37,642 nucleotides of DNA from an uncultured Alphaproteobacteria bacterium (GTDB taxonomy: Bacteria; Pseudomonadota; Alphaproteobacteria; CAAGCB01; CAG-977). Location of the stretch: positions 1-37,642 of the forward strand of contig CALXYE010000030.1 in the NCBI GenBank assembly GCA_944392845.1. Reading direction: 5' to 3'. Below the pieces are notes generated by a model. That model made no database searches, had not been told where the DNA came from, and was given only the letters and a program-made list of their open reading frames with translations. Made by a program: the position numbers and the translations under genes. This document shows, one piece after another, positions 3,272-18,914 of this stretch; position 1 is the stretch's first letter, and each line of letters opens with the position of its first letter.

Positions 3272-3333
3272 CAATAAATCTCCGCGAAATCAGAATGACG
3301 CCGCCCGTCAACCGCTCACCCTTGCCTCCTTAA

Positions 3334-5119: not shown

Positions 5120-6271
5120 ATGGAAAAACGACCGCTTTCATCCGTATCGCCCGCGCCCAAAGGCCCCGTTCTTGTCAAAAGGATCAAGATCGTAAAGCGC
5201 CCCGTCGCTCCGGCGGCGACTCCTGTGCCGCCTCAGCCAGCGCCGCAACAAAAAACCGTTCTGGTCAAAGTTCCCGTCAAAAGAATTAAGGTTCCCGTAA
5301 AGCGCCCCGTTCCCCCTGCGGCGGCTCCCGTACAGCCTCCCGTTCCCCCCGCGCCCTCTCAGACTGCGGCTCCGTCCGTACAACCTCCCGAAATGAAGAT
5401 TGCCGCCGCCGTCCAAAGCCGTCCGCAACCCGTGATTACGGGAAAAACGGCTTCTCCGATGCAACGGGCGCACAGAATCCGCTCGTCCGAAGCCGATGAC
5501 CCCGTAAAATACGTTCTGCCCTCCAATCCTTTGGATAAAATCACTTCGCACGAAAGCGCGCGCGAACGCTTTTTCCTGTTTTACGTCTACGTCCGCCTGT
5601 ATGCGGAAGAATTGCTGGACGAAGAGGAGTTCCTGTCCCTGCCGCCGATGGCTTTTGAACTGCCGCAAACAAAAAGAGAGTTGAGAATATTCAAAAATCA
5701 GCTCCGTTCCGAAGCAAAGGAAGGGATGATGGACGACATTTTGGACGATCTGACGACGATTCTGCCTTTGATCCCTGAAATGCAGCGCATCTTAAACACC
5801 GACGCCCCTTTGGACGATCTGATTGAGGAAGAAATCGCGTATATGGAAGATTCCGAAGATTCTTCCGTCGGCGAACAGCTTGTCGTTTCCTACCTGCTGG
5901 TCATGGCAGACATGGAAATCATGATGAGGAAGGCACAAAGCCGCCGCATGCGCGAAGAACGGGAAAATCTGATCGAAGAAATCCAAGATAACGAAAACGA
6001 AGAGTTAGAAATCCAAAAAGCGTTCGTCAATGCGCTGAAAAAGGAAAATTTCCCCGTAGATGCGGAAAAGCTGATTAAAAACTATTTCAATTTCGCCCGT
6101 AAGGAACCGGAAAAGGCTTATCAGTTACTGACGACGAATCCGCTGTTTTTCGCCCCCGTTCAAACGGAAAAGCTGCCCAAAAAGTTTTTCGGACTGGTCA
6201 AAGCGGGGCCGAAGGAAGCTTCCGCCGTTAATAAGCGGCTCGCTTCTTTCCTGAAAAAGGTTAAAATTTAA
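5120..6271 (+). CDS. Hypothetical protein with a Pro-rich tandem-repeat N-terminus and an acidic helical C-terminal domain
   Basis: 383-aa ORF. The N-terminal 100 aa are Pro/Ala/Val/Lys-rich, with VKRIK..VKRPV..PP repeated twice. No TM segment and no recognised domain. Confidence 0.7.
   Translation: MEKRPLSSVSPAPKGPVLVKRIKIVKRPVAPAATPVPPQPAPQQKTVLVKVPVKRIKVPVKRPVPPAAAPVQPPVPPAPSQTAAPSVQPPEMKIAAAVQSRPQPVITGKTASPMQRAHRIRSSEADDPVKYVLPSNPLDKITSHESARERFFLFYVYVRLYAEELLDEEEFLSLPPMAFELPQTKRELRIFKNQLRSEAKEGMMDDILDDLTTILPLIPEMQRILNTDAPLDDLIEEEIAYMEDSEDSSVGEQLVVSYLLVMADMEIMMRKAQSRRMREERENLIEEIQDNENEELEIQKAFVNALKKENFPVDAEKLIKNYFNFARKEPEKAYQLLTTNPLFFAPVQTEKLPKKFFGLVKAGPKEASAVNKRLASFLKKVKI
5174..5356 (+). 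repeat. Imperfect tandem duplication (period about 102 nt) encoding the VKRIK-x-VKRPV-Pro-rich unit
   Basis: gtcaaaaggatcaag..gtaaagcgccccgtc at 5174 recurs as gtcaaaagaattaag..gtaaagcgccccgtt at 5276. Confidence 0.7.
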
Positions 6272-6375: not shown

Positions 6376-7860
6376 ATGGCTGATTCGCAAGACGCCCCCA
6401 ACGTTGAAATTTCGCAGAATGTCCCCGAAAATACGATCTCGAACGGCGCGGAAAGAGCGTCCGGGGAACAAAACGCTTCCGACCTCGAAAACACCATAGA
6501 AAACGGCGCCGACAAGGAAGGCACTTTTGAGGGTGAAGCGGAAAACGACGGCCGCGACGGAGAAAGGGATAAAAAACCGTTTTATCTTAGAATCCGCGAA
6601 GCGGACGACGCCGCCAATTTCTTTTGCAAACTTCTGGCGGATTCTCCGTTGTTGACCATCGGTAACATCGAGCCGTTGTTCCAACGTCTGTCGGCTCCCG
6701 TCAGATTTGCCCGCGATATGTATGCCGCCCGCAAAGAATATAAAAAAGAATTGAGGGAACACGATCATCAACGTCGCATGGACGCGGCCGAAAAATTCAA
6801 AAACAACGATCCTTCCGACAATCAGGTTATCAGCGACAAAGACGGAATAAAAGTTACGGAAATCGGCAATACGGGTACGATGAAATTCGGCAAGGACGGC
6901 CGGGGCAAAATAAGCACGCTTGAAAAAATGTACGCCGTGGAGCGTACGGGAGCCGACGGCAAAACAACGACGGAATTCCTGAACAAAAAAGAAGTGGAAA
7001 AACAACTGGGCATAAAGGTTCCTCCGGTTCGCGCGACCGATGCCGAAAAACAAGAATATAAAGACCGCTATTCTTTAACGGACCGTCAGGCAAGAAGACT
7101 GAACAAACGTTATAAAGATACGGATGCGAACTTGGCGCGCAAACGGGCGGAAAAGGACAAAGCGAAGGAAGAACGCCCGCAACAGGCCGAAAAGAACAAG
7201 GAACCCGCGTCCAAAAACAACAAAAAAGAAGAAAAGGCCAAGGATCAAAAGGGCAAAGACGAAAAGAAAAAAGCCCCGAAAAAACGCGCTTCAAAGGAAC
7301 AAAATCCCGAAATGAAGAAGCTGATCCGCGAGCAAAAAAGAATCGAAAAACAGATCACCGAAGCGGAAAAGAAAACGCCGAACTTCGATAAAACGCCCGA
7401 GGGTAAAAAGCTGTATAACAAACTGTTTCTGAATGACGTCAAACAGCAACAGGTCGCGGTGGAAGACAAAATTACCAAAGCGGAAAAACAAAATCCGAAT
7501 TATGACAAGACGAAAGAAGGTAAAGCCGACTATAAAAAGTTGTTTGATCTGGAAAAACAGGCCAATACTCTCAACCGCCCTCCGAAGGAAAGCAAAAGCA
7601 AGGGGTTGAGCCTGCAATCCGCTCCGAAACAGATCAGCAATAAAAAAGCGTCGTCAAAGAAGGCAACGTCAAAGGCTCGAAACATCAAGACGAAAGAAGA
7701 CGCAAACAACCGTTCCGTCAAAAGCCTGCAAAACAGCGCCTCGCGTCTGAAAAGCGTGGCGAAGCAAACAAACCGCTCCGCTTCGAAGCAAAGAACGTCG
7801 ACACGGACGAGCGGCAGGACTCCGTTTACGGGCGGACGCAACGCGAATACGGGGCGATAA
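6376..7860 (+). CDS. Hypothetical Lys/Glu-rich, largely low-complexity protein with an internal 39-aa repeat and a Ser/Thr/Arg-rich C-terminus
   Basis: 494-aa ORF with an acidic N-terminus, a long KE-rich middle and the C-terminus ...NRSASKQRTSTRTSGRTPFTGGRNANTGR. No TM segment and no recognised domain. Confidence 0.7.
   Translation: MADSQDAPNVEISQNVPENTISNGAERASGEQNASDLENTIENGADKEGTFEGEAENDGRDGERDKKPFYLRIREADDAANFFCKLLADSPLLTIGNIEPLFQRLSAPVRFARDMYAARKEYKKELREHDHQRRMDAAEKFKNNDPSDNQVISDKDGIKVTEIGNTGTMKFGKDGRGKISTLEKMYAVERTGADGKTTTEFLNKKEVEKQLGIKVPPVRATDAEKQEYKDRYSLTDRQARRLNKRYKDTDANLARKRAEKDKAKEERPQQAEKNKEPASKNNKKEEKAKDQKGKDEKKKAPKKRASKEQNPEMKKLIREQKRIEKQITEAEKKTPNFDKTPEGKKLYNKLFLNDVKQQQVAVEDKITKAEKQNPNYDKTKEGKADYKKLFDLEKQANTLNRPPKESKSKGLSLQSAPKQISNKKASSKKATSKARNIKTKEDANNRSVKSLQNSASRLKSVAKQTNRSASKQRTSTRTSGRTPFTGGRNANTGR
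7354..7560 (+). repeat. In-frame tandem repeat (period 117 nt)
   Basis: ITEAEKKTPNFDKTPEGKKLYNKLF (from 7354) is repeated as ITKAEKQNPNYDKTKEGKADYKKLF (from 7471). Confidence 0.7.
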
Positions 7861-8291: not shown

Positions 8292-9449
8292 GTGAAAAAA
8301 AGGAAGCTGTCTTTTTTCGTTCTTCTTTTATCCGGCCTTTTCAGCGCAGCGGTCTGTTTCTTTTTATTCAAAGCTTATTTCCATGCGGGATGGCGCTTCG
8401 ACATTATGAAAGTGAGCCATTGGCAATATCTGGCGGACAAATGGAATTCCGGATGGGTCATGAGCACGCCGAAAGAAATGATGTTCTTTGCCGGCTTTGT
8501 CGCAATCATTCCCGTCTGGCTGACGACGTGGGTTCTGTGCTACATCATGCCGTGGAAGGGAATACTGCTGTTTCCTTTAACTCTGCTGAAAAAACGCAAA
8601 GCGGAAAAGTTGTTGCAAAAATCGATTGAAGCAGCCAAAGGTCCCGAAAACATACAGGCCGCCCTGGCGGCAAAGAAAGCGGCGCCGAAGGAAACCGCGC
8701 ACAAAGCGCCGAAAATATCTTCGGACAAAATGACAAAGATTGACAAGCTGAGAGGGCGAACCTCTCATGCGCATTCCGCCGCGCCGCAACCGGTACAAAC
8801 GGCGGGTACGTTTGAAGAACCCGTTCAAACGCAGCATCAGCCCGTTTCGCCGACGGCCCTACCCTCCGCCGAAACGCCGCAAACGGCGGCGGCGTCCGAT
8901 CAAAAGTCCCGCACGTTGCAAGTTTGGGATGATTTGGCGGCTCTGATGGAAAAAAGCGGTATTTTCATTTTTCGCGAAATGAAAATCGGAGCCTACGAAA
9001 CAAACATCATTGCCGTAACGAACGAAAACGTTTTCCTGCTCTCCGAAGGGCCGAAGCTCGGCTCGAACTGGACGGTCTGCGAAAACGACACGCCGCCCGT
9101 GTGGAAGGACGGCAAAGACGCTTTGGCTTCGCCCCTCCGCCCTTTGCTTGACGCGCGAAACAAGCTTAAAGAGCATCTTGACGCGGAGTTTCCTCAATAT
9201 TCATCTTTAGTCGTCAACGCCTGTTTGGTTTTGGATCACGGCAACGTTACGAATACAAAAGCCTTAATCGAAAAATTGGAAGAATGGGATATGTCGGTAT
9301 TGCGAACGGGAACGTGCAAAACGACAGATCTGCCCGAGGTCGGGGCTTTGCTTTCTTACATCCGTACACAGGCTCAGGCGACGCAGGAGGTCAGCGACGC
9401 AATCGCGGACACGCTTCTGTTTTTGATGGAGACGGGCAGTGATTTCTAA
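8292..9449 (+). CDS. Membrane-anchored NERD-like protein, paralog 1
   Basis: 385-aa ORF with a GTG start. The N-terminal TM is followed by the conserved WRFDIMKVSHWQYLADKWNSGWVMSTPKE block and a second TM region, then a Pro/Ala/Lys linker. The C-terminal part (IFIFREMKIGAYETNIIAVTNENVFLLSEGPK..W..SPLRPLLDARNKLKEHL) resembles the NERD pattern. Confidence 0.6.
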   Translation: MKKRKLSFFVLLLSGLFSAAVCFFLFKAYFHAGWRFDIMKVSHWQYLADKWNSGWVMSTPKEMMFFAGFVAIIPVWLTTWVLCYIMPWKGILLFPLTLLKKRKAEKLLQKSIEAAKGPENIQAALAAKKAAPKETAHKAPKISSDKMTKIDKLRGRTSHAHSAAPQPVQTAGTFEEPVQTQHQPVSPTALPSAETPQTAAASDQKSRTLQVWDDLAALMEKSGIFIFREMKIGAYETNIIAVTNENVFLLSEGPKLGSNWTVCENDTPPVWKDGKDALASPLRPLLDARNKLKEHLDAEFPQYSSLVVNACLVLDHGNVTNTKALIEKLEEWDMSVLRTGTCKTTDLPEVGALLSYIRTQAQATQEVSDAIADTLLFLMETGSDF

Positions 9450-10497
9450 ATTTTTCGCGGCCATCGCCCGCCTGTTCACCATTGCCTGCATCTGGACTCC
9501 CGGCTATGTGTTTTGGTTCCGCCGCTTAACGGTCGGTCTGTGGGGTTTTGACATCCTGGCAAAATCCCATTGGAACTATATTTGGGATCAGTGGCAACAG
9601 GGATGGGTTATCCAAAGCCCCCGCGAATGGTGTTTTGTCATCGCGTTATGCATGTTCGTCCCCTTATGGTTCATCGGATGGACGATTTTATGTTCCATCT
9701 CATGGATGTCTTGGTTCAAGGCTATCCTCCTGTTCCCGATCAAGCTGCTGAAAAGTATAAGAAAAAGATCGACCAAAAGCGGCGCAAAACCGAAAGTCAC
9801 CCGTCGGAAATCCTATAAACAAACACGTCCGCCCGCCGTACGCGCCGGTTCGGGAAAGATCAAACCCTTGGATAAAGCGCCGGAAGAAGAAGCTAAGCAT
9901 GCTTCGAAAAAACATGCTCACGCGAAAAAGCACGAAGAAAACATCTCTCCGTCGCCCGAACCGAAACGCGAAGCAAGACCTTCGTCCGCGCCGACGGGCG
10001 CCGTATCTTCGGGCGGCAGTATTGCCGACATTCTTTCCAAGGCGGGTTATCGCCTTATTTCGAATGCCAAAGCGGGGGGCAAACCTGTTGATTTTATCGG
10101 CGTTGCGGACGACCGTTTGCTTTTATGCCTGGTCGATTCCGAACCCGGCGACTGGCTGGCTGACGAAGAACGTTTCAATGACGAAGAACCGCTGTGGTTT
10201 TCCGAAAGCAATCACAGGATATCCCCCGTTCGCGTCATTTTGAACGCGCGCGACGCTCTGATGCCGAAACTTTCGGGGCGCGCAAGAGGCCTTGACGTCA
10301 GGACGATGGTCATTGTCAAACAGGGAACCATCATCAACGCCGAAGACATGTTCGAGGTTTGGGAAGGCCTGCGCGTTTCCGTCTGCCGTTATCAAGACGG
10401 CGGCCCGTCCGAAATCAAACCTTTGAACGAAGTCGTCGAACGCGTCAATGCTCCCGACGATGATCTGTTCCGCGACGTTTCTTCGGCATTGGGATAA
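9439..10497 (+). CDS. Membrane-anchored NERD-like protein, paralog 2
   Basis: 352-aa ORF with a GTG start that overlaps the previous stop by 11 nt. It has the same N-terminal block (WGFDILAKSHWNYIWDQWQQGWVIQSPRE), a basic linker, and the C-terminus VDFIGVADDRLLLCLVDSEPGDW..W..SPVRVILNARDALMPKL. Confidence 0.6.
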   Translation: MISKFFAAIARLFTIACIWTPGYVFWFRRLTVGLWGFDILAKSHWNYIWDQWQQGWVIQSPREWCFVIALCMFVPLWFIGWTILCSISWMSWFKAILLFPIKLLKSIRKRSTKSGAKPKVTRRKSYKQTRPPAVRAGSGKIKPLDKAPEEEAKHASKKHAHAKKHEENISPSPEPKREARPSSAPTGAVSSGGSIADILSKAGYRLISNAKAGGKPVDFIGVADDRLLLCLVDSEPGDWLADEERFNDEEPLWFSESNHRISPVRVILNARDALMPKLSGRARGLDVRTMVIVKQGTIINAEDMFEVWEGLRVSVCRYQDGGPSEIKPLNEVVERVNAPDDDLFRDVSSALG

Positions 10498-10550
10498 TCT
10501 TTTCTTTACTTTTAGGGCGCATCCTGAATTAAAACGAAAAGGGGAAAAAA

Positions 10551-11504
10551 GTGCGCCGATTTGATAAAGCGTCCTTAATAAAAAAAATATTGAAAGACGT
10601 CTTGCGCCTGACGTTGCGTTTGGCCGGGATCGGAGCGGAATGCCTGATTGCCTTTTTCTTTAAAGTCTTTATTCCGTTTTTTATCGGCTCAATTGCCTGT
10701 TTCGCGCTAACCTGCATCCTGTTGAACGGAATCGGAACGGAAGCAATCGAAACGGCAACGACATTCGCGAAAGAAACCCTTTCTTCGCCGTTGTCCCTGC
10801 TTCCGCTGTACGCCCAATGGTACGACGACGTTTTTGAAAACGGTTTCCGGACATCTTCCCGATATTTTCTGTCCCAAGTCCTGCCCGCCGTCCCGCTTTT
10901 TTACGCGGCGTTCGGCATAATCGGCATGCTTCTGCTCCGTCCCGCGGCTTCGCATTCGCGCGAAGGGCGGCGGGCGCGGTTGGATTTCATTGACGAACTG
11001 TTCCATCATATAAAAGAACAAAAACGCGGTTTTTCCGATGAAGAATTCTTTACCCGCCGCGAAGAAGCGCCGGAGTTGGAACGGGACGCCTTTGAAGAGG
11101 AATTTTTCGGCGAAGACGAAAACGAAGACGTTTCGGCGGCTTTAAAGGTACTGTACATCAGCGACGACGTTAAAATATTCGGCAAGGAAAGCCTGTACGA
11201 CGAATGGGCGGACAAGACGCGTCTGGCCGTCGTATTTTGCACGCCGAAGGAAGCCAACGGCTTTTTCCTTCAGGCCTTTTACGCAAGCCGCCTGAAAAAT
11301 CGGGACTGCCGCGCCTTAAAAGGTTTTTTCCGCGACCTGAAAGATGCGGACGCCGCGGAAGAAGTAAAAAAAATACGGGCGGGAGTTTTTGATTCTTCGC
11401 GTTACGACAAAATTACCTTCTGGGAAAGGCCGCCCCTTTCCTGGCGCAAGGCAAAGGTCATGTTCTGCATGATTCCCAAACTTTGGGAATCAAAGGAAAA
11501 ATAG
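10551..11504 (+). CDS. Hypothetical membrane protein with an acidic cytoplasmic domain
   Basis: 317-aa ORF with a GTG start preceded by AAAGGGGA. It has hydrophobic segments in the first 130 aa, then a Glu/Asp/Phe-rich region. No recognised domain. Confidence 0.6.
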   Translation: MRRFDKASLIKKILKDVLRLTLRLAGIGAECLIAFFFKVFIPFFIGSIACFALTCILLNGIGTEAIETATTFAKETLSSPLSLLPLYAQWYDDVFENGFRTSSRYFLSQVLPAVPLFYAAFGIIGMLLLRPAASHSREGRRARLDFIDELFHHIKEQKRGFSDEEFFTRREEAPELERDAFEEEFFGEDENEDVSAALKVLYISDDVKIFGKESLYDEWADKTRLAVVFCTPKEANGFFLQAFYASRLKNRDCRALKGFFRDLKDADAAEEVKKIRAGVFDSSRYDKITFWERPPLSWRKAKVMFCMIPKLWESKEK

Positions 11505-11513
11505 GGAAAATAT

Positions 11514-11542
11514 TTGGATTTTCATCGGATTGCTTTTATACT
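11514..11542 (+). promoter_or_regulatory. Sigma70-like promoter upstream of the coupling-protein gene
   Basis: TTGGAT (11514-11519), 17-nt spacer, TATACT (11537-11542). Confidence 0.5.
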
Positions 11543-11585
11543 AAAAAGGTATATCTTTTTTTGAAGTCAGGGAGCTGTTTGAAGA

Positions 11586-13916
11586 ATGGCAAAACGCGGT
11601 GATGAATGGGCAGAAAGAGATGCCGCAGTAAACTGGTGTATCGCAACGGTCGCCATTTCCTGCGCGGCATTTTTTGTATTGGCAATCGCCAGCTTTGCGC
11701 TTTCTTACCTGATCGGAAAAGGCATCAGCCAGGAAACTCTGGGCATCGTATGGAAATTCCTGAAACGGCTGGCGCTTGATCCGATGTACTTGGGACAAAC
11801 ATATTGGAGGTGGCTCAAGCAGTTCTATGCTTTGGGCGGAGCCTTCAGCATACCGATGTGGTTGCCGACGGTGCCGTTCTTTGCCTTTTTCGTCATTTTG
11901 GTAACGGGTCTGATCATGAACCCGCACGAATGGATATCCCAAATCCACGGCAGCGGACGCATTGCCACTTATGCCGACATTAAAAAAATGGGGTTGTTCG
12001 ACGGCTTTATCATCGTTTTGGGACGCTGGAAGGGTAAGCTGTTACGCCTGCCCGAAACGCTGTCCGTGCTGGTGCTGGCGCCTCCCGGAACGGGTAAGAC
12101 GGTCGGCGTCGTTATGCCGACGATTTTCGAATCCAACAACATCAGCATCATCGTCAACGACCCGAAACCCGAATTGTGTTTTAAAACAAGCGGTTACCGT
12201 CAAACCATCGGTCCCGTGTTCGTCATCAACTGGGGCGCCGAAGACGAACCTGACAAGGGTATTTATTATCCCAGCTGGAACCCCTTGTCCGCAACGTGTT
12301 TGCCGCCGATGGGGCCCGCGCGCGACATGTACGTCGACAGTATGGTGACCGTGCTGGTCGAAGAACCGAAAGGCGGCGCGGATCCGCACTGGGCCAAAAC
12401 GGGCCGAAACGCCCTGACGGGCTTCATCCATTTCGTCGTCGGAAAGTGCGAACGCGCCCGCGCGAACGATTACTTTATCGGAAAGCTGTATGAAGGGGCA
12501 CTGGACGACAAAGACCGCGAAGTCCTTGAAGGCTATTATTTGGACATGACGGACGCCGATGCGGCGGGCGCTTTGGAAAATCTGCGCAACGGCACGTTGA
12601 CTTTGGAAAACTACGTCCCCATCGGAACGTGGGAAATGTTGCCCGAATCCTGGGTCGGCGGAGAACCCTGCATCGCCATGATTCTGGACTGGCTGACCGA
12701 AGCGCAGATGCAAATGGCGGCGGACATCAAACGCCGTACCGAAGAAGGCGACCAGATGGCCGCCCTGGCCGATCCGATGCGCGACATGCTGGATCAAGCG
12801 GTCGCCGAATGTAAAAAGTACGGGTACGCTCACCGCGCCGTCGTCGAATTGAACCAGTTGTCGGGAACGCCCGATAAGGAACGCGGTTCTATTTTATCGA
12901 CGGCATTAACGGGTATCGGTATTTTCAAAAACTCGGCCGTGCGCGCCAGAACAAAAATGAGCGATTTCATCTTTCGCGATTTGCGCGGCATGAAGGATCC
13001 GATCACGGGCGAAATGAAATCAATTGCCGTCTATCTGTCGGTGAACCAGGTTGACGCCCGCGCGTTGAACATCATCACGGGAACGTTCGTCGAGCTGATG
13101 TCGAACTTCCTGATCGCGAATCCGCCCAACTTCCCGCAAGCGGACGGCGGCAAAACGGGGCCGTTCCCGACGCTGTTCGTCCTCGACGAATTTCCGCAAA
13201 TGCCGAAACTGGGCGCCGTTAAGGACGGCCCTGCGGTCGGACGCGGCCAAAAAGTGTCATACCTGCTGATCGGGCAAGACTTGGGCCAAATTTCGGGACA
13301 ATACGGCAAGGACGATCTGGAAACCATCATTTCCACAACGGCGGCGAAAATCGTTTTGTCGCAAAACAACGAACAAACGGCTCAACGTTTCGAAAAGATG
13401 ATCGGTACAAGAACGGTTGAAATCGCTTCTTCCTCCCGTACGGAAGGTTGGTCGAAACAGGCGACGCCGTTCTCTAAAAACGTATCCCGTTCGTTGCAGG
13501 GAACCGCCGTTATCGGCGCTTCGCAAATGCTCAGCCTGCCTTCGACGAAACAAATCGTTTTGATGCAAGGTTACATGAACCGCCCGATTATGGCTGATGC
13601 GCCGCGTTGGTTCTTGGATAAGGAAATGACGAAGAAATGTCAGATTCCCGCTTCGCCGAACGTGCCGTACTGGGTTGTCGCCCAACGCGAAGATTCGGAC
13701 GTCAGCGCGTTGCAGGGATTGATCGACATCGCCGACGAAGAAACGGACGAAATCGAAGACGAACTTGATGAAATGGAAGACGAAGAATACGACATTGAGG
13801 ATATCGACGACGAAGATGAAGATTACGACGATGACGATGAAGACGAGGATGAAGACGAAGAGTATGACGACGAAGATTACGAAGACTTCATTGAAGACGA
13901 ATATGACGGCAAATAA
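11586..13916 (+). CDS. virD4: Type IV secretion coupling protein (VirD4/TraG family ATPase) with a poly-acidic C-terminal tail
   Basis: 776 aa with two N-terminal TM segments. Family motifs are HGSGRIATYADIKKMGL; Walker A LAPPGTGKT (GTGKT at 12087-12101) followed by VNDPKPEL; Walker B-like LFVLDEFPQMPKL; and LLIGQDLGQISGQYG. The last 63 aa are almost entirely Asp/Glu/Tyr. Confidence 0.9.
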   Translation: MAKRGDEWAERDAAVNWCIATVAISCAAFFVLAIASFALSYLIGKGISQETLGIVWKFLKRLALDPMYLGQTYWRWLKQFYALGGAFSIPMWLPTVPFFAFFVILVTGLIMNPHEWISQIHGSGRIATYADIKKMGLFDGFIIVLGRWKGKLLRLPETLSVLVLAPPGTGKTVGVVMPTIFESNNISIIVNDPKPELCFKTSGYRQTIGPVFVINWGAEDEPDKGIYYPSWNPLSATCLPPMGPARDMYVDSMVTVLVEEPKGGADPHWAKTGRNALTGFIHFVVGKCERARANDYFIGKLYEGALDDKDREVLEGYYLDMTDADAAGALENLRNGTLTLENYVPIGTWEMLPESWVGGEPCIAMILDWLTEAQMQMAADIKRRTEEGDQMAALADPMRDMLDQAVAECKKYGYAHRAVVELNQLSGTPDKERGSILSTALTGIGIFKNSAVRARTKMSDFIFRDLRGMKDPITGEMKSIAVYLSVNQVDARALNIITGTFVELMSNFLIANPPNFPQADGGKTGPFPTLFVLDEFPQMPKLGAVKDGPAVGRGQKVSYLLIGQDLGQISGQYGKDDLETIISTTAAKIVLSQNNEQTAQRFEKMIGTRTVEIASSSRTEGWSKQATPFSKNVSRSLQGTAVIGASQMLSLPSTKQIVLMQGYMNRPIMADAPRWFLDKEMTKKCQIPASPNVPYWVVAQREDSDVSALQGLIDIADEETDEIEDELDEMEDEEYDIEDIDDEDEDYDDDDEDEDEDEEYDDEDYEDFIEDEYDGK

Positions 13917-13961
13917 CGGAGCGACGGTTTAAGAAAACGGCATTAACAGGAACGGTGCATC

Positions 13962-15014
13962 ATGTGGGACTGGTCGGGTTCCAAAATCCCGCCTCCGAAG
14001 CGTTCGCGCGAGGAGGCCGCCGCGGAAGCGCAGAATCAGGGAGTCACTCCCGTGCGCCGTGACGTTCGCGTCGTACCTATTTACAGGGATCCCCGTTCCT
14101 TCAGAACCCTGCCGCCGACGGCGCCCGCTTCCGCTTATCCCGATCCTTTGGATATGTCGCAGCCCGTTTATCCCAACGTGCCGATGCAACCGCCCCGTCC
14201 GAACTATCCGCCTCAGCCGCCGATGCCGCAGGCCTATCCTTATCCGCAACCGCAGCCCTACCCCGCCGCGCCCGCAGGAATGACGTCGTGGGGCAACATC
14301 CCGCCGCCGCAACCCGCATACATGCCTCAGCCGTATCAGCCTTATCCGCCGATGCCGCCGCAACCCGCTCCGTACCTTCAGCCGCAAATGCCCGGGCAAC
14401 CCGAAACAATGCCGACGATGTCGGCCTACCAGCCGAATGCCGCCGCCGCCATGCCTGCGGAAGAAACGGGCGACCGTTCCATGTGGGAATGGCAAATGTC
14501 GCAGATGGAACTCCCCAACATGGACCTGATTGAAGCGAACTACATCATGTTGGATCCCCGCTGGCGGCTGGAATTGCGCAAAGCGTTCAAGCGCGCGCGC
14601 CGCGATTTCCTGAAATACGTCGGATACCACCATGTCAACGAACTGATGGCGGCGGGACTTTTAGAGGAAGACATCGCGAAAATCAAAAAAGGCAAGGCTC
14701 CCGAAAACTTTAACGTCCATGTCCGCATTCCCTTTGATTACGGCGGTACGAACGACTTTTCAAATCTTGTCCTGATACAAACGCATCCCTTCCACGTTAA
14801 TATTCACAAATTGCTGGACATGCAGATTCTCAGCCGGCCGCAGGGCATGAAGCCCCGCCGCCTGTTCATCCCCGCGCCGAAGGGAAAAGTCTATTTCCCC
14901 GGCGTCATTGAAGTGTCATCGGGCGGAAAAGACAAGCACGACAGGAGCGTTTACGCCGGTTTCCTGGAAAGCACTTTTGAAATTATCGCTCAAAAATCTT
15001 CTTTAGGACGGTAA
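13962..15014 (+). CDS. Putative HNH-nuclease toxin/effector with a Pro/Gln-rich N-terminal region
   Basis: 350 aa. Residues about 45-165 are P/Q/Y/M-rich low complexity. The C-terminal NVHVRIPFDYGGTNDFSNLVLIQTHPFHVNIH (14718-14807) fits the HNH pattern His..GG..N-L..H-x3-H. Confidence 0.65.
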   Translation: MWDWSGSKIPPPKRSREEAAAEAQNQGVTPVRRDVRVVPIYRDPRSFRTLPPTAPASAYPDPLDMSQPVYPNVPMQPPRPNYPPQPPMPQAYPYPQPQPYPAAPAGMTSWGNIPPPQPAYMPQPYQPYPPMPPQPAPYLQPQMPGQPETMPTMSAYQPNAAAAMPAEETGDRSMWEWQMSQMELPNMDLIEANYIMLDPRWRLELRKAFKRARRDFLKYVGYHHVNELMAAGLLEEDIAKIKKGKAPENFNVHVRIPFDYGGTNDFSNLVLIQTHPFHVNIHKLLDMQILSRPQGMKPRRLFIPAPKGKVYFPGVIEVSSGGKDKHDRSVYAGFLESTFEIIAQKSSLGR

Positions 15015-15017
15015 CGA

Positions 15018-15461
15018 ATGCCCGAAATGCTGAAACGGATTTTGGAAACCTTGAAAAAAGACGACGGCGTCTTTTTTCCGCCCGTTGACGACCGTTCTTT
15101 GCGCTTTGTCGCCTCCATGCTCTCCAGCCACCATTTCCCGATGATCCCCAAAGATTACATCGAGCTCTTAAAACAAACGGACGGTTTGGTGTGGAACGGC
15201 ATTGAGCTTTACGGGACGCGCGCAAACGACAGGGAAACGATGGGATACACTCTGCCGGGGCTGATCGAAGCCAATCTGGAATACGCAAACGTACCGCAAA
15301 TGCGCGGCAAACTGTTGCTGGGGCGCGCATCGGAAGAATTATTCGTTTACGATACGACGGACCAGAAATACCACATCCTCGATCGTTTGGACTTTCAGGT
15401 CAGCTGCAGTTTTCCGACGTTTTCGGAGGCCGTATACCTGTTCGTTGACGAGCTGTTTTAG
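15018..15461 (+). CDS. SUKH/SMI1-KNR4-like putative immunity protein
   Basis: 147 aa, starting 3 nt after the HNH gene stop. FPMIPKDYIELLKQTDGLVWNGIELYGT matches the remembered SMI1/KNR4 (SUKH-1) core (LP.dY.efl...nG...g.el.g). Confidence 0.6.
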   Translation: MPEMLKRILETLKKDDGVFFPPVDDRSLRFVASMLSSHHFPMIPKDYIELLKQTDGLVWNGIELYGTRANDRETMGYTLPGLIEANLEYANVPQMRGKLLLGRASEELFVYDTTDQKYHILDRLDFQVSCSFPTFSEAVYLFVDELF

Positions 15462-16252
15462 CCCTTTTTTTGCGAAAGCGCGCGGGAATATTCCGTCAAA
15501 AAGCAAAACATATAAATAACGGTAACGATGCTTGCCGTCATAAACGTCAGATTCATTCCCAAAAATAAAGCAACCGAATTTATAACGGCAAACGGCAGAA
15601 AAGATAACGCTCCCAGCCTGAGACGCATATCAAACGGCATATCCAGCCGAAAGAACGGCGTGATAAAAAAAGATAAAACGGCGAAAAAGAACGCGCAAAG
15701 ACAAAATACCGTCGAAAACATCGCGCCTAAAACGGCAAAGACCGCTACGGGAAAAGATCTGTGCAAATATGTAATCAGACGGGACAGTTGCCCGCGCACC
15801 CGTTCGCCGTCCGTTACGGAAAAGTCTCCGTACCGCTCCAGCATCCCGGCTAAGGGAACGCTGCCGGCGTAGCGGCCTCCCGCCATCAAAAGCCTGTCCT
15901 GCGTTACATAAATTCCCTTGGGCGGCAAGTCTTTGAACGAAAGAGGCTTTTGAGTCGTATCAAAAATAAAAAAGAAGTCTTTTTCGGGAGACACATAAAC
16001 GTATTCATACCCTTCCGGCTTCGTGATCCGTCCGCCTTCAAAGCGGATTTCTTCATTTTGCTCCAGTATCGGCAATAAAATGTCCGCCGTCAGAGGACGA
16101 ACCGCCATATACATCCCCAGCGCCCAAAACAACGACGCCAGAAACGCCAAGCGAAACAACGGGCCGAACCCCGCCCCTTTGCCGTCCGAAACGACTTTTT
16201 GAGCCAGCGTTTGATCGTAAAAGACCCGATACAAAAGGGAAAACGATCCCAT
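15458..16252 (-). CDS. DUF1189 (YvdJ-like) family membrane protein, copy 2
   Basis: 264 aa. The N-terminus MGSFSLLYRVFYDQTLAQKVV is followed by a TM, a central extracytoplasmic domain and C-terminal TMs. It is a paralog of the adjacent ORF. Confidence 0.6.
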   Translation of the reverse strand: MGSFSLLYRVFYDQTLAQKVVSDGKGAGFGPLFRLAFLASLFWALGMYMAVRPLTADILLPILEQNEEIRFEGGRITKPEGYEYVYVSPEKDFFFIFDTTQKPLSFKDLPPKGIYVTQDRLLMAGGRYAGSVPLAGMLERYGDFSVTDGERVRGQLSRLITYLHRSFPVAVFAVLGAMFSTVFCLCAFFFAVLSFFITPFFRLDMPFDMRLRLGALSFLPFAVINSVALFLGMNLTFMTASIVTVIYMFCFLTEYSRALSQKKG

Positions 16253-17044
16253 TTAAATGCTATCTCCGACGGCGGGGCGGTTTTCCATACGCTTAAAGTA
16301 TGTAAACATATAAACAAGGCTGATGATAAAATATATCGCGTACGAAAACGTAACGCCGAACACCCCCGTGATTATGCTTAGTACGGCCGAAGGAAGCAAA
16401 GATAGAGCCGCAATTCGCGTTCTTTGCTCCAGGGTCGGGGATTTTTTCATCACCGCCGAAAAAGCATATGAGATAAACACGAAGAACAGTAACGCGTTCA
16501 TCAATCCCCAAAAGGAAAAAACAAAAAAGGCCAGGCAAAAGATCGGCAAGAAGACCTTCAATACCGCTCCTTTTACGGTATTGAAGCCGTTTTCAAAAAA
16601 AGATTCATTCAAAACGGTCGTTCCCGACGGCAGGAATTCTTTGAAAGCAAGCGAATGTATCCGTTTCCCGCCCTTAAAAAAGACATCCTTTTTCGCGACA
16701 AAGATCCCGGTATCGGGCAATCCCGAAAAATCCGCCGTTTCCGAAGACGTGTTCACGACGAAAAAGAAATCCTTGCTTTTTCCCATAACGTCCTTCGTAA
16801 CAATGACGTCGCCCCGCACCTCGCCGTCCGTGACCGTCAATTCGGGCAGCCCCGTGAACAGGGGACGCAACGCGTTAAAGGAAAACGAAGAAACCAGAAT
16901 ATACAACAATAACGTTATCAAAGCCGTCGAGATAAAAGATACCAAAGCCAGCGGAGCGATCCCCAGCTTTTTCCCCTTCATAACGAATTCCGAAAACAGC
17001 GATGCGTCGTAAAACGATTTATATAACAGCTTGAACGAGCCCAT
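16253..17044 (-). CDS. DUF1189 (YvdJ-like) family membrane protein, copy 1
   Basis: 263 aa. MGSFKLLYKSFYDASLFSEFVMKGKKLG and the same architecture as copy 2. Its stop abuts the next start (TAAATG). Confidence 0.6.
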   Translation of the reverse strand: MGSFKLLYKSFYDASLFSEFVMKGKKLGIAPLALVSFISTALITLLLYILVSSFSFNALRPLFTGLPELTVTDGEVRGDVIVTKDVMGKSKDFFFVVNTSSETADFSGLPDTGIFVAKKDVFFKGGKRIHSLAFKEFLPSGTTVLNESFFENGFNTVKGAVLKVFLPIFCLAFFVFSFWGLMNALLFFVFISYAFSAVMKKSPTLEQRTRIAALSLLPSAVLSIITGVFGVTFSYAIYFIISLVYMFTYFKRMENRPAVGDSI

Positions 17045-17485: not shown

Positions 17486-17560
17486 GACCCTATCGTCTAA
17501 CGGTTAGGACATCGCCCTCTCAAGGCGGTAACACGGGTTCAAATCCCGTTAGGGTCGCCA
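17486..17560 (+). tRNA. tRNA-Glu (anticodon CTC)
   Basis: 75-nt cloverleaf folded by hand: acceptor GACCCTA/TAGGGTC; D stem GTCT/GGAC; anticodon stem TCGCC/GGCGG with loop CTCTCAA; T arm ACGGG-TTCAAAT-CCCGT; encoded CCA. Confidence 0.9.
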
Positions 17561-17565
17561 AAATC

Positions 17566-17598
17566 AACGGCAGATATAAAAGCTGCCGTTTTTCTTTT
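17566..17598 (+). terminator. Rho-independent terminator after tRNA-Glu
   Basis: AACGGCAG / CTGCCGTT 8-bp stem with a 9-nt loop, followed by TTTCTTTT. Confidence 0.75.
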
Positions 17599-17975
17599 AT
17601 AAATCAAACACTTAGCCAAGTTCAAACGTTCATTTTTTGAAAATTGCATTTTGGGAAGTTTTTCCGAACTAGTTTGATGATAATACTTTATTTTTCAATA
17701 TGTTGAGCAAGTTTGAATCTCGCTCAAGTCTCGGGATTGACTTTTAGTTATGAATCGGATTTGAAACTTGCGATGATGAAAGTTTTTGACACCAACGACA
17801 AATTATTTTTTTTACAATCTTATTTTCATTTTAAATTAGGTTAGTTGTTTGAATTTATGTAAATATCTTGTAATAAGCCTATCCCATTAAGCTATAAACG
17901 ACCCGTGGATTCAGTGATTGCTTTTTCATCATAAAACATAATCCCAATCTGAAACCGATCAAACCGGGTTGAATT

Positions 17976-18914
17976 TTATTTTATAACGAGTTCCTTTATA
18001 TCTATTTTTTGTTTTTCATCGAACAAAGCATAACCGGACGGTGTAAAGGCAGCAGGTTTGATTTTGTTTTCTTTCATCCAATAACGAATAGAGGAAACCG
18101 GAACATTACACAGCTTTGCAAACTTGGAAATTGTCAGTAATGATTTATCTGGTTCTCGCTTATTAACATCTAATAAATCAATCATCATTTTAAGCGAACG
18201 GTTCATCGCCGAAAGCATAAATTTATAATAAGGTTCGCTGTTTTCCTTTGTCTGGTATGTTTCTAAGGCGCTTAAATATCTTCTTCTGTCAATCGTACGG
18301 ATAATAATCGGCATATAACCGTTTTCAAGTAATATACTATTAAGCAACAATCTTGCCGTTCTGCCATTGCCGTCAACAAAAGGATGTATGGTTACCAATT
18401 GATAATGAGCTTCAATCGCTTTTATGAGCATATCATTTTCTTTTTTTACCAGCCAATCGGAGAAATCTTTCATTAAGTCAGGAACTTTCAACGGATTAGG
18501 TAAAATGGTTTGAGAGCCGAATATTCTGACACGGACGGAACGATAAAATCCGGCATTAGTATCATCTATCCCGGATAAAATAATTTTATGAATCTGTAAA
18601 ATATAGTTTTCATCAATTTTAATGTTATTTTGTGCAGAGGTTCTTATAAACTCAAAGGCCTTGGCATGGTTAATTGCTTCCAGATAATCATTGATTGGTT
18701 TTGCGCCGGAAGTTATTTTTTCTTCAATAGCCATCTCTGTTTCTTTTCTGGTTAAAGTATTTCCCTCAATGGCGTTGGAAGTATAGGCTAATTCGGTTTT
18801 CAGCCATTTATCCAAAACCTTTTGATTGTCTTTATTTTTCAGAAGATTTTGTAAGATAGTCTTGTTTTCTTCAATTTTTAATCTGGTTTCCTGCATGGCA
18901 GCCCCATACTTCAT
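17976..18914 (-). CDS. Fic family protein (class II, N-terminal inhibitory helix) fused to a C-terminal MerR-like HTH
   Basis: 312 aa. The Fic active-site motif is HPFVDGNGRTAR. The inhibitory motif S-x3-E-G lies in YTSNAIEGNTL. The C-terminal LTISKFAKLCNVPVSSIRYWMKENKIKPAAFTPSGYALF resembles a MerR-type HTH. The gene sits in a visibly AT-rich segment. Confidence 0.85.
   Translation of the reverse strand: MKYGAAMQETRLKIEENKTILQNLLKNKDNQKVLDKWLKTELAYTSNAIEGNTLTRKETEMAIEEKITSGAKPINDYLEAINHAKAFEFIRTSAQNNIKIDENYILQIHKIILSGIDDTNAGFYRSVRVRIFGSQTILPNPLKVPDLMKDFSDWLVKKENDMLIKAIEAHYQLVTIHPFVDGNGRTARLLLNSILLENGYMPIIIRTIDRRRYLSALETYQTKENSEPYYKFMLSAMNRSLKMMIDLLDVNKREPDKSLLTISKFAKLCNVPVSSIRYWMKENKIKPAAFTPSGYALFDEKQKIDIKELVIK

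Follow-up and report, generated by a model that had tools for sequence, protein, structure and literature searches.

The gene pair located downstream of virD4 in the window (the whole stretch of DNA analysed, 37,642 nucleotides) derives from a known class of toxin/immunity pairs, is tethered to VirD4 and encodes an HNH-like protein followed by a SUKH-fold partner. T4SS-delivered DNases of the HNH superfamily are already known, namely TfdA of S. maltophilia (PMC11253643) and LtdD of Lysobacter (PMC13600162). The best explanation found for the pair, adopted here tentatively, is that it is a chromosomal descendant of the YhhZ-CT/YrhA class of HNH-toxin/SUKH-immunity cassettes, tethered to VirD4, in which the HNH-like protein would be bound by the SUKH-fold protein and exported through VirD4 and would not be an ordinary DNase.

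Gene order and the SUKH-fold partner

The features of the locus are listed in Table 1. The virD4 product also matched the Pfam families TraG-D_C (1.5e-20) and TrwB_AAD_bind (3e-17), every NCBIfam VirD4/TraG model scored under its cutoff, and the Pfam T4SS-DNA_transf match bears out the position of virD4 directly 5' of the pair that had been proposed from the sequence alone. The C-terminus of VirD4 contains 75% Asp/Glu over its last ~75 residues (13683-13913), with a charge of -47. The membrane proteins X1 and X2 are paralogues (BLASTP 7.5e-32) and are encoded upstream of virD4 in all related loci with enough upstream sequence; one X homologue matched Pfam NERD at 4e-4 with 21.3 bits, just under the cutoff of 22.1. 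Genes for VirB4 and VirB8-B11 were not found in the window. PADLOC gave zero matches and PHROGs gave matches to unknown-function families only.

Table 1. Coordinates of the genes and protein features of the virD4-linked locus.
Feature	Position	Strand	Basis
X1, membrane protein, paralogue of X2	8292-9449	+	
X2, membrane protein, paralogue of X1	9439-10497	+	
virD4, type IV coupling protein, 776 aa	11586-13916	+	Pfam T4SS-DNA_transf 1.1e-57
HNH-like protein gene, 350 aa, pI 9.2	13962-15014	+	ORF call
Conserved N-terminal peptide, residues 1-40, MWDWSGSK.PPP...	13962-14081	+	Alignment A1
Pro/Gln/Tyr-rich low-complexity linker, residues 41-165	14082-14456	+	Composition
Conserved C-terminal domain, residues 166-350, YhhZ-type HNH toxin homologue	14457-15011	+	
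Beta-beta-alpha (His-Me finger) core, E248-Q288	14703-14825	+	DSSP, profile alignment
H253, metal-ligand position	14718-14720	+	
V254, general-base position, not His	14721-14723	+	
Clade-specific C-terminal tail, residues 315-350, GGK.KHDRSVYAGFLESTFE.IA.KS..GR	14904-15011	+	
YrhA-family SUKH-fold protein gene, 147 aa, pI 4.8	15018-15461	+	ORF call, NF038335

A gap of 45 nt separates the virD4 stop codon from the start of the HNH-like gene, and no promoter-like site was detected in it. The HNH-like gene ends with TAA (15012-15014), which is followed by CGA and then by the ATG of the YrhA-like gene at 15018; these coordinates agree with the earlier claim that the 147-aa ORF begins 3 nt past the stop of the 350-aa ORF. 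The sequence AGGA is present 8-13 nt 5' of this ATG, and the acidic 147-aa SUKH-fold protein would be translationally coupled to the HNH-like protein.

The 147-aa protein was assigned to the NCBIfam YrhA family NF038335 (E 2e-22, with 79.7 bits where the cutoff is 55). Foldseek comparison of its AF2 model (pLDDT 89.4) gave 2icg (3.8e-4), 3d5p of the SMI1/KNR4 family (4.3e-4) and 2pag (0.03), with probability 1.0 and TM of about 0.59-0.68, and the protein has, as modelled, the SUKH alpha+beta fold. The partner had been described as SMI1/KNR4 (SUKH-1); the SUKH fold is retained on the Foldseek results and the family is corrected to YrhA, because Pfam SMI1_KNR4 gave no match at E<=1. The Pfam families SUKH_5 (0.035, 14.3 bits) and SUKH_6 (0.15) remained under their 27-bit cutoffs, and a search of the PDB with the YrhA profile returned only chance-level matches to pseudoazurin. 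Pairing of HNH and YrhA genes is recurrent, since it is found as yhhZ-yrhA in E. coli K-12 and in 458 plasmids; in K-12, yhhZ is an orphan and yrhA is IS-disrupted. Because the HNH domain is homologous to YhhZ and the partner belongs to the YrhA family, the pair is, as judged from these relationships, a descendant of this recurrent HNH/YrhA cassette.

The HNH-like protein and its active-site positions

The 350-aa protein is made up of a conserved N-terminal peptide, a variable linker, a basic HNH domain and a clade-specific tail. In the N-terminal peptide M1, D3 and W4 are conserved at 90% or more (alignment A1), the start M[WF]DW[ST] is present in 31 of 59 species loci, and neither a signal peptide nor a TM segment was found. 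This N-terminus may resemble the colicin TolB box (MWDWSGS against DGSGW), and no claim is drawn from it. A Pfam scan of residues 1-165 revealed no domain, hence none of the Hcp, PT-HINT, PT-TG, MuF or Rhs type. The linker is made up of 34% Pro, 11% Gln and 10% Tyr (P+Q+Y, 54%), so the Pro/Gln/Tyr-rich character described earlier for the N-terminal region is confirmed by composition, from which its disorder is also predicted. Linker length differs among species, with heavy gaps in alignment A1, and the length of the complete protein lies between 295 and 454 aa. The Pro/Gln region is missing in other VirD4-linked members such as P0151, and the proposal that it acts as the recruitment signal is not supported. 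Two of the proteins, P0095 and P0144, are chimeric sequences that hint at occasional swapping.

The C-terminal tail is absent from YhhZ-type toxins and from the P0151-type VirD4-linked proteins, and the canonical relatives stop near profile position 150 of 187. In the model, the pLDDT falls below 50 at domain residues 155-170 and a helix follows; the GR terminus is found in 49 of 59 loci. The tail is clade-specific and related to no known family. None of the 96 homologues of the 350-aa protein carries a functional name, the few that are named being called 'hypothetical protein'. At E<=1, the Pfam scan of the HNH-like protein gave only DUF3139 (0.1), with no BID and no XVIPCD, a domain for which a Pfam model presumably exists; the expectation that recruitment would be unlike the XVIPCD type is consistent with this result.

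The homology of the C-terminal domain was revealed by profile comparisons. The family profile aligned with E. coli YhhZ over 133 columns (hhalign probability 98.9, E 1.2e-17) and with an 'HNH endonuclease' of an IncHI2 plasmid (E 5.9e-18). A profile search yielded 437 cluster representatives at E<=1e-10 and 673 at E<=1e-3, and in many of these 673 relatives the HNH-like domain forms the very C-terminal end of a long protein; domains carried by these proteins include PT-HINT, PT-TG, MuF_C, Portal_Mu and Pfam HNH. Several relatives (P0236, P0266 and P0212), which the profile search recovered with E values near 1e-20 to 1e-22, match Pfam HNH at or above its cutoff. The HNH homology is visible only with profiles, since Pfam and NCBIfam gave no HNH family when the 350-aa sequence was scanned by itself; the HMM searches for HNH suggested by the sequence-only reading were thus positive in the first form and empty in the second. 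A phmmer search of the PDB returned only SgrAI at chance level (E 0.5).

The AF2 model of the C-terminal domain reached a pLDDT of 82.6, and DSSP assigned strands at 250-254 and 269-273 and a helix at 274-290, which corresponds to a beta-beta-alpha topology. HNH domains ranked top in the Foldseek search with this model and none was significant (best E 0.56), so that the ranking has not been taken as proof of an HNH fold. The HNH signature indicated earlier is present in full (H253, G261-G262, N268-L269 and H278-x3-H282), and the match is, by the profile comparisons, far beyond chance; the positions given for it, 14718-14807, do correspond to H253-H282, and the string quoted with them begins two residues before, at 14712. 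The domain and its partner have complementary charges (pI 9.25 and 4.81).

In the HNH DNases ColE9 and ColE7 the general base is H103 and H545, respectively, and mutagenesis shows that this His is essential. The best PDB sequence match of the profile was pyocin AP41, at an only marginally significant E of 0.027, and in this alignment FNVH-l-kiP was placed on FEIH-H-VVP of the pyocin DNase, so that H253 pairs with the first His of the HH. H253, regarded earlier as the catalytic His, is consequently reassigned as a metal ligand. The general-base His would be expected where strand beta1 ends, three residues ahead of the conserved Pro, and this position is occupied by V254. The ungapped family-wide alignment shows His at position 254 in 98 canonical relatives, whereas the VirD4-linked clade has V, I, L, M, R or Q there, with His in 0 of 59 species. 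The assignment of the general base to this position is putative, resting on the alignment combined with the knowledge established for ColE9 and ColE7.

The other elements of the site have been retained, including the three metal-ligand His (H253, H278 and H282) and the structural Asn268. Each of the 59 species has both H278 and H282, N268, H278 and H282 are invariant in alignment A3, and E248-N249 is invariant and clade-specific. E248 was considered as a substitute general base and rejected on its inferred geometry, since it would lie at the opposite end of strand beta1. No member of the VirD4-linked clade has the general base, so that DNase activity of the HNH-like protein appears doubtful; His-Me fingers that have lost the catalytic His or Tyr are regarded as presumably inactive (PMC5714182). 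A catalytic site operating by an unknown route could nevertheless explain why H253, H278, H282, N268 and E248-N249 are strictly conserved.

Linkage to virD4 and explanations for the pair

All 60 alphaproteobacterial species examined, from gut or rumen, share the fixed order TM protein X, VirD4, HNH-like protein and YrhA-like protein, with VirD4 identities of 61-95% and domain identities of 42-96%, and the same gene order is found with the shorter P0151 type. The outer flanks of the loci differ and consist of housekeeping genes. Among the 52 VirD4 loci with enough downstream sequence, 23 are devoid of the pair, including that of a fairly close relative with 77% VirD4 identity (L098). VirD4 thus does not need the pair as its neighbour, and the pair behaves like cargo rather than machinery. 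Its role as an obligatory VirD4 accessory, considered from the 60/60 linkage, was downgraded after these 23 loci were found.

The HNH-like protein may be exported as cargo and may have ceased to act as an ordinary DNase. According to the preferred explanation, the SUKH-fold protein would bind the HNH domain in the producing cell and either neutralise or chaperone the HNH-like protein, which would then be passed to the adjacent VirD4 as a type IV secretion substrate. Points in favour of this explanation are the lack of a signal peptide, the 45-nt gap with no promoter-like site and the linkage in 60 of 60 species. Since every clade member is devoid of the general base, the protein would be expected to bind DNA or, at most, to cleave it weakly or in a non-canonical manner, and colicin-like DNase killing is not expected. 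A related reading, possible although somewhat doubtful, is that an HNH-toxin/SUKH pair was captured, became fixed behind virD4 in an entire clade of gut Alphaproteobacteria, lost its nuclease chemistry, with the general base missing here and all His missing in some relatives, and now serves a non-killing role, either as a DNA-binding T4SS substrate with a SUKH chaperone or as a coupling-protein adaptor acting with the NERD-like membrane proteins.

The replacement of the general-base His, essential in ColE9 and ColE7, in all clade members makes it unlikely that the pair encodes what the sequence-only reading proposed, an active HNH DNase toxin exported by VirD4 and the T4SS to kill neighbouring cells, with the SUKH protein as immunity protein. 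A polymorphic C-terminus is also lacking, since one domain with its partner is found over 60 species and it is the N-terminal middle that varies; the scan found the pair once in each genome, and more degenerate relatives that have lost all His still keep the SUKH partner. Such a toxin would nonetheless account for a domain shared with YhhZ and with the C-termini of polymorphic toxins, for the invariant metal-ligand His and Asn, for a SUKH partner kept in 60 of 60 species, as expected of a toxin that is still dangerous, and for the many VirD4 loci without the pair, as expected of cargo; a precedent is Hcp-ET1, which has been characterised experimentally with its immunity protein, as reviews describe (PMC6730261, PMC6099711). 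What persists of the proposed effector/immunity cassette coupled to VirD4 is its recurrent HNH/YrhA type and its linkage to virD4 in 60 of 60 species, and what counts against it is the missing general base in a locus that is vertically conserved and not polymorphic.

Each of the 60 species keeps the pair in fixed order with X and VirD4, which would also be compatible with a pair that has been domesticated to assist the coupling protein and is not itself secreted, in which a nuclease-dead HNH fold and the SUKH protein work with VirD4 and the NERD-like membrane proteins as adaptor, regulator or DNA-handling factor. A His-less version located between X-like and YrhA-like proteins, beside VirB6-like genes and with no VirD4 (L075), and the X homologue that almost reaches the Pfam NERD cutoff point in the same direction, and the long acidic VirD4 tail could dock a basic partner; however, that tail is absent in distant clades still carrying the pair, and the 23 of 52 X-VirD4 loci that go without the pair, that of L098 among them, render this role rather improbable. 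It is very unlikely that the pair lacks any functional tie to the T4SS and is a remnant, possibly decaying, of a toxin-antitoxin-like addiction or kin-discrimination system. The loss of the catalytic His, the disruption of the gene in a near-identical strain contig (L082) and the occurrence of HNH/YrhA pairs in unrelated contexts, such as the K-12 orphan yhhZ with its IS-disrupted yrhA and the plasmids, would fit a remnant, but neither ORF is interrupted and purifying selection is clear for both over the 60 species (domain identities 42-96%), the pair has stayed beside virD4 in loci whose outer flanks differ, and the conserved clade-specific N- and C-terminal additions argue for a maintained function.

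The locus would provide a candidate T4SS substrate, together with a candidate substrate-recognition problem, in abundant, uncultured gut and rumen Alphaproteobacteria, and the literature searches found nothing on secretion systems of this group, nor on type IV secretion in RF32. It also represents a natural experiment, an HNH toxin in which the general base has been lost while the metal site and the immunity partner have long been kept. If still toxic, the protein would define a non-canonical HNH mechanism; if non-toxic, it would clearly exemplify the recruitment of a toxin/immunity pair to another task. In either case, the recruitment signal would be other than the XVIPCD of Xanthomonadales, and the non-killing reading, if true, would amount to a conflict system exapted as a module of a secretion system.

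Comparison with known systems

YhhZ, an Hcp-HNH protein annotated as 'putative endonuclease' and of which Hcp-ET1 of STEC is presumably an orthologue, resembles the HNH-like protein in its C-terminal HNH homology of ~133 columns, with helices before and a strand after the core, and in the YrhA-family gene directly 3', a basic toxin being combined with an acidic partner. The Hcp or pre-toxin domain is absent from the protein described here, which has instead the N-terminal peptide and the Pro/Gln linker and an additional C-terminal tail of 36 aa; NVHHK in YhhZ corresponds to NVHVR, with loss of the general base, and the neighbouring secretion gene is virD4 of a T4SS and none of a T6SS. Hcp-ET1, a fusion of Hcp with an HNH DNase that belongs to the Hcp-ET1/ETi1 class, is described in reviews as a T6SS effector directed against bacteria and paired with its own immunity protein (PMC6730261, PMC6099711).

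The colicin and pyocin DNases have in common with this domain the spacing H-H, P at +3, GG, N and H-x3-H and a three-His metal site. They differ in the general base (H103 in E9 and H545 in E7), which is Val here, in their immunity proteins of the four-helix Im fold, whereas a SUKH-fold partner is found here, and in their receptor-binding and translocation domains, which are absent here.

The X-Tfe/X-Tfi pairs of Xanthomonadales, whose T4SS effectors kill bacteria, include TfdA and LtdD, in which an HNH-superfamily protein is likewise genetically tied to a VirB/VirD4-type system and encoded beside a small cognate protein (PMC11253643, PMC13600162). Their genes are scattered in the genome, whereas the gene described here is fixed directly after virD4; the nuclease domain is N-terminal in X-Tfe and the nuclease-like domain is C-terminal here, where the catalytic His is absent and no XVIPCD was detected, and the partner is cytoplasmic and of the SUKH type, in a gut alphaproteobacterium. 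The loss of the catalytic residue with conservation of the fold has parallels in inactive His-Me fingers, such as Smad MH1 and the nuclease-like domain of ENPP, in which the catalytic His or Tyr has been lost and binding of DNA or ligand is retained by domains presumed inactive (PMC5714182). Only the fold is seen to be shared with these domains, whereas the three metal-ligand His of the VirD4-linked protein are strictly conserved.

Genes surrounding virD4

Two open reading frames lie directly behind virD4, as the sequence-only reading had described, and encode the 350-aa HNH-like protein and the 147-aa YrhA-like (SUKH-fold) protein, called here the pair. The first starts 45 nt after the end of virD4, with no promoter-like site found in the interval, and stops with TAA at 15012-15014; the second begins three bases on, with AGGA located 8-13 nt upstream of its ATG. 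The two genes are most likely translationally coupled and probably co-transcribed with virD4. No signal peptide was found in either protein. The P/Q/Y-rich stretch previously described was located at residues 41-165 of the HNH-like protein (54% Pro+Gln+Tyr), and the antisense ORF mirroring the GC-rich Pro/Gln codons of this linker is most likely non-coding and a product of composition.

Features of the virD4-containing contig
Feature	Position	Strand	Description
VirB6/TrbL-like paralogues	184-1590, 1832-3274, 3334-4866	-	three in tandem
Two proteins	5120-6271, 6376-7860		no family matches
X1	8292-9449		membrane protein
X2	9439-10497		membrane protein, paralogue of X1
Third gene	10551-11504		closest relatives only
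virD4	11586-13916	+	Pfam T4SS-DNA_transf 1.1e-57, TraG-D_C, TrwB_AAD_bind
VirD4 acidic tail	13683-13913		~75 residues, 75% Asp/Glu, charge about -47
Antisense ORF	13929-14633	-	234 aa, Arg/Gly-rich
HNH-like protein	13962-15014	+	350 aa
YrhA-like protein	15018-15461	+	147 aa
DUF1189 paralogues	15458-17044	-	two in tandem
tRNA-Glu(ctc)	17486-17560		followed by low-GC stretch (within 17486-18914)
Fic-domain protein	17976-18914	-	MerR-type HTH; in low-GC stretch

The VirB6/TrbL-like proteins are mutually homologous (BLASTP 1e-16 to 1e-23), and the third matches Pfam TrbL (6.9e-6). The window contains neither VirB4 nor VirB8-B11 genes, and therefore the T4SS genes appear dispersed. Of the two proteins encoded between the VirB6-like genes and X1, one is rich in Pro/Val/Ala in its N-terminal half; the other, of 494 aa, is Lys-rich and of low complexity (AT skew 0.46). 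X1 and X2 (BLASTP 7.5e-32) precede virD4 in all related loci that reach far enough upstream. An X homologue in the related locus L004 matched Pfam NERD (nuclease-related domain, 4e-4) just below cutoff, and in locus L075, where VirD4 is absent, an X-like protein directly precedes a degenerate HNH/YrhA pair. The subclade with the Pro/Gln-rich linker in its HNH-like protein also has the VirD4 acidic tail, which is lacking from distant clades that retain the pair (VirD4 length 716-724 aa). The DUF1189 genes are convergent with the YrhA-like gene, with a 4-nt overlap of stop codons, and are kept in closer relatives only. The low-GC stretch (34-40% vs about 50%) probably represents an island inserted beside tRNA-Glu; Acetobacter sp. 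CAG:977 (L007) has this tRNA at 100% identity.

The HNH-like domain and its active site

Single-sequence scans of the 350-aa protein (Pfam, NCBIfam, PDB) found nothing, so that the proposed HNH domain was recovered by profiles but not by direct matches. The 96 homologues, some from 'MAG: Alphaproteobacteria bacterium' records, include none functionally named, the few named being 'hypothetical protein'; they share the MWDWSGSK start and a C-terminal domain of ~185 aa, with a variable low-complexity middle. A 24-sequence profile of this domain matched E. coli K-12 YhhZ (probability 98.9, E 1.2e-17, 133 columns), and exhaustive profile search with the domain retrieved 673 cluster representatives at E<=1e-3 (437 at E<=1e-10). 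Many of these relatives are long proteins with the domain at the extreme C-terminus, carrying PT-HINT, PT-TG, phage MuF_C or Portal_Mu, and several reach the Pfam HNH cutoff. At the level of sequence, the profile matches are taken as decisive evidence for HNH homology. The AlphaFold2 model of residues 165-350 (pLDDT 82.6) contains a beta-beta-alpha unit (strands 250-254 and 269-273, helix 274-290), and its top Foldseek ranks were HNH domains (Cas8-HNH, Gme HNH, NmeCas9 HNH), none significant (E>=0.56). The domain is basic (pI 9.25).

The HNH-like motif quoted earlier is present (H253, G261-G262, N268-L269, H278-x3-H282). The assignment of H253 as the catalytic histidine did not hold, because this residue aligns with the first His of the HH pair. 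The best PDB match of the domain profile was the pyocin AP41 DNase domain (E 0.027), FNVH-l-kiP.dYgG...N being aligned with FEIH-H-VVPLESGG...N. Among 247 domain sequences aligned without gaps, H253 is near-universal (230/247). The next position, 254, is occupied by His in 98 canonical relatives, including YhhZ (NVHHK) and the plasmid proteins (QVHHK); members of the VirD4-linked group have V, I, L, M, R or Q there. Counted from 254, the canonical register places Pro at +3, Gly-Gly at +7/+8, Asn at +14 and His at +24 and +28. H102 and H103 of ColE9 (H544 and H545 in ColE7) are established as metal ligand and general base, respectively, and since the register matches these positions, H253 is predicted to be the metal-ligand His, the general base being apparently missing. 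At the general-base position, 59 species-level loci have L (28), I (19), V (7), M (2), R (2) or Q (1) and never His, with H278 and H282 retained in all 59. E248-N249, found in 58/59, is exclusive to this clade, canonical relatives having x-G there. Further relatives, such as P0174 (TTIMFKIP...HPHADTLYSF), have lost all these His residues; they are still flanked by an X-like membrane protein and by a YrhA-like protein of 147 aa, adjoining VirB6-like genes.

The YrhA-like partner and the cassette type

The 147-aa protein is acidic (pI 4.81) and matched NF038335 (YrhA family, NCBIfam; E 2e-22, 79.7 bits vs a cutoff of 55). The proposed SUKH-like partner was thus sustained at fold level but not as SUKH-1, since SMI1_KNR4 (Pfam) gave no match; SUKH_5 (0.035) and SUKH_6 (0.15) were sub-threshold. 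Its AlphaFold2 model (26 homologues, pLDDT 89.4) had SUKH-superfamily structures as best PDB matches: 2icg (3.8e-4), 3d5p (4.3e-4, annotated as SMI1/KNR4 family) and 2pag (0.03), with TM 0.59-0.68.

Toxin/immunity ancestry of the pair is borne out by recurrence of the pairing. YhhZ (b3442, 'putative endonuclease') consists of Hcp domain plus HNH, and in K-12 yhhZ is followed by yrhA, whose fragment matched the window protein (BLASTP 7e-6). A homologous 'HNH endonuclease' occurs on 458 plasmids, 433 of them conjugative, directly followed by a 'YrhA family protein' in both records inspected; the one record inspected for type was IncHI2-type. YhhZ is group 32 in the His-Me classification (PMC5714182), and reviews describe the Hcp-HNH fusion Hcp-ET1 as an antibacterial DNase that is delivered by the T6SS and has its own immunity protein (PMC6730261, PMC6099711). 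Because of the YhhZ-profile homology, these pairings and the cited Hcp-HNH effector, the window pair is assigned by homology to a type of HNH/YrhA toxin-immunity cassette that recurs, and descent from the toxin/immunity class is counted as shown.

On the IncHI2 plasmid NZ_CP067381.1 (6845-7936), a canonical HNH plus YrhA-family pair is inside the transfer region, adjoining TraG_N and trhH, and an IS3-family element closely precedes the HNH gene. Here too the cassette is associated with a conjugative T4SS. Two metagenomic proteins, P0095 and P0144 (the latter identical to the window protein at residues about 184 to 269), join a VirD4-linked N-terminal part to a canonical 'HHKLPIHGGG...PHDELHH' HNH, reflecting either real recombination or assembly artefact. 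This canonical type (P0171; L071) is repeated in tandem ahead of rpmI, with no SUKH gene alongside.

Distribution and possible role of the pair

When one genome was scanned for each GTDB species, 60 loci were found; nearly all bear titles of Alphaproteobacteria (or Rhodospirillales/Rhodospirillaceae) MAGs, the majority sampled from gut or rumen, and three have Lactobacillales-type titles. The nearest, 'Acetobacter sp. CAG:977', has ~80% nucleotide identity across 9473-15723. As far as contigs reach, the order X (one to three copies), VirD4, HNH-like, YrhA-like was kept in 60/60, with unrelated housekeeping genes as outer flanks. Amino-acid identity to the window proteins was 61-95% (VirD4), 42-96% (HNH-like domain) and 29-96% (YrhA-like). 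The reverse search from VirD4 in metagenome contigs gave 52 loci whose downstream sequence extends 1.8 kb or more, the pair being present in 29 and absent in 23, among them L098, with 77% VirD4 identity and X1/X2 present. The pair is thus tethered to virD4, but virD4 can do without the pair next door, a pattern that suits cargo better than core machinery. The HNH-like gene of L082 (6816-7241; contig with 95% VirD4 identity and 3.9x coverage) is preserved up to ~residue 77 only and then runs into unrelated sequence, with no YrhA-like gene present, owing to either strain-level disruption or chimeric assembly. The locus is unlike a polymorphic toxin locus, because each genome has one copy of the pair, with the same C-terminal domain everywhere and a variable protein middle.

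The favoured reading, held tentatively, is that the HNH-like protein is a T4SS substrate with lost or altered DNase chemistry: the SUKH protein would bind the HNH domain, the complex would be presented to VirD4 and the HNH-like protein would be exported. A still-active DNase toxin is ranked below it and considered unlikely; His-Me fingers without catalytic His or Tyr are presumed inactive (PMC5714182), and the protein may be a DNase working by a non-canonical mechanism. More doubtful, and ranked third, is a non-secreted accessory of the coupling protein, and a remnant unrelated to the T4SS, ranked last, is improbable. In the favoured T4SS substrate, a recognition signal would most obviously be looked for in two clade-specific extensions of the YhhZ-type domain, the N-terminal peptide and the C-terminal tail of 36 aa. 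The signal is assigned to neither, because neither is universal among VirD4-linked members; the 186-aa P0151, without these additions, is encoded directly after VirD4 and before a 146-aa YrhA-like gene.

HNH/SUKH cassettes are well known; new here are the host clade, the fixed place behind virD4, the absence of XVIPCD and an apparent clade-wide loss of the general base with metal site and partner retained. TfdA (PMC11253643) and LtdD (PMC13600162) of Xanthomonadales are T4SS-delivered HNH-superfamily DNases with immunity proteins, and LtdD has an XVIPCD, whereas none was detected in the window HNH-like protein.
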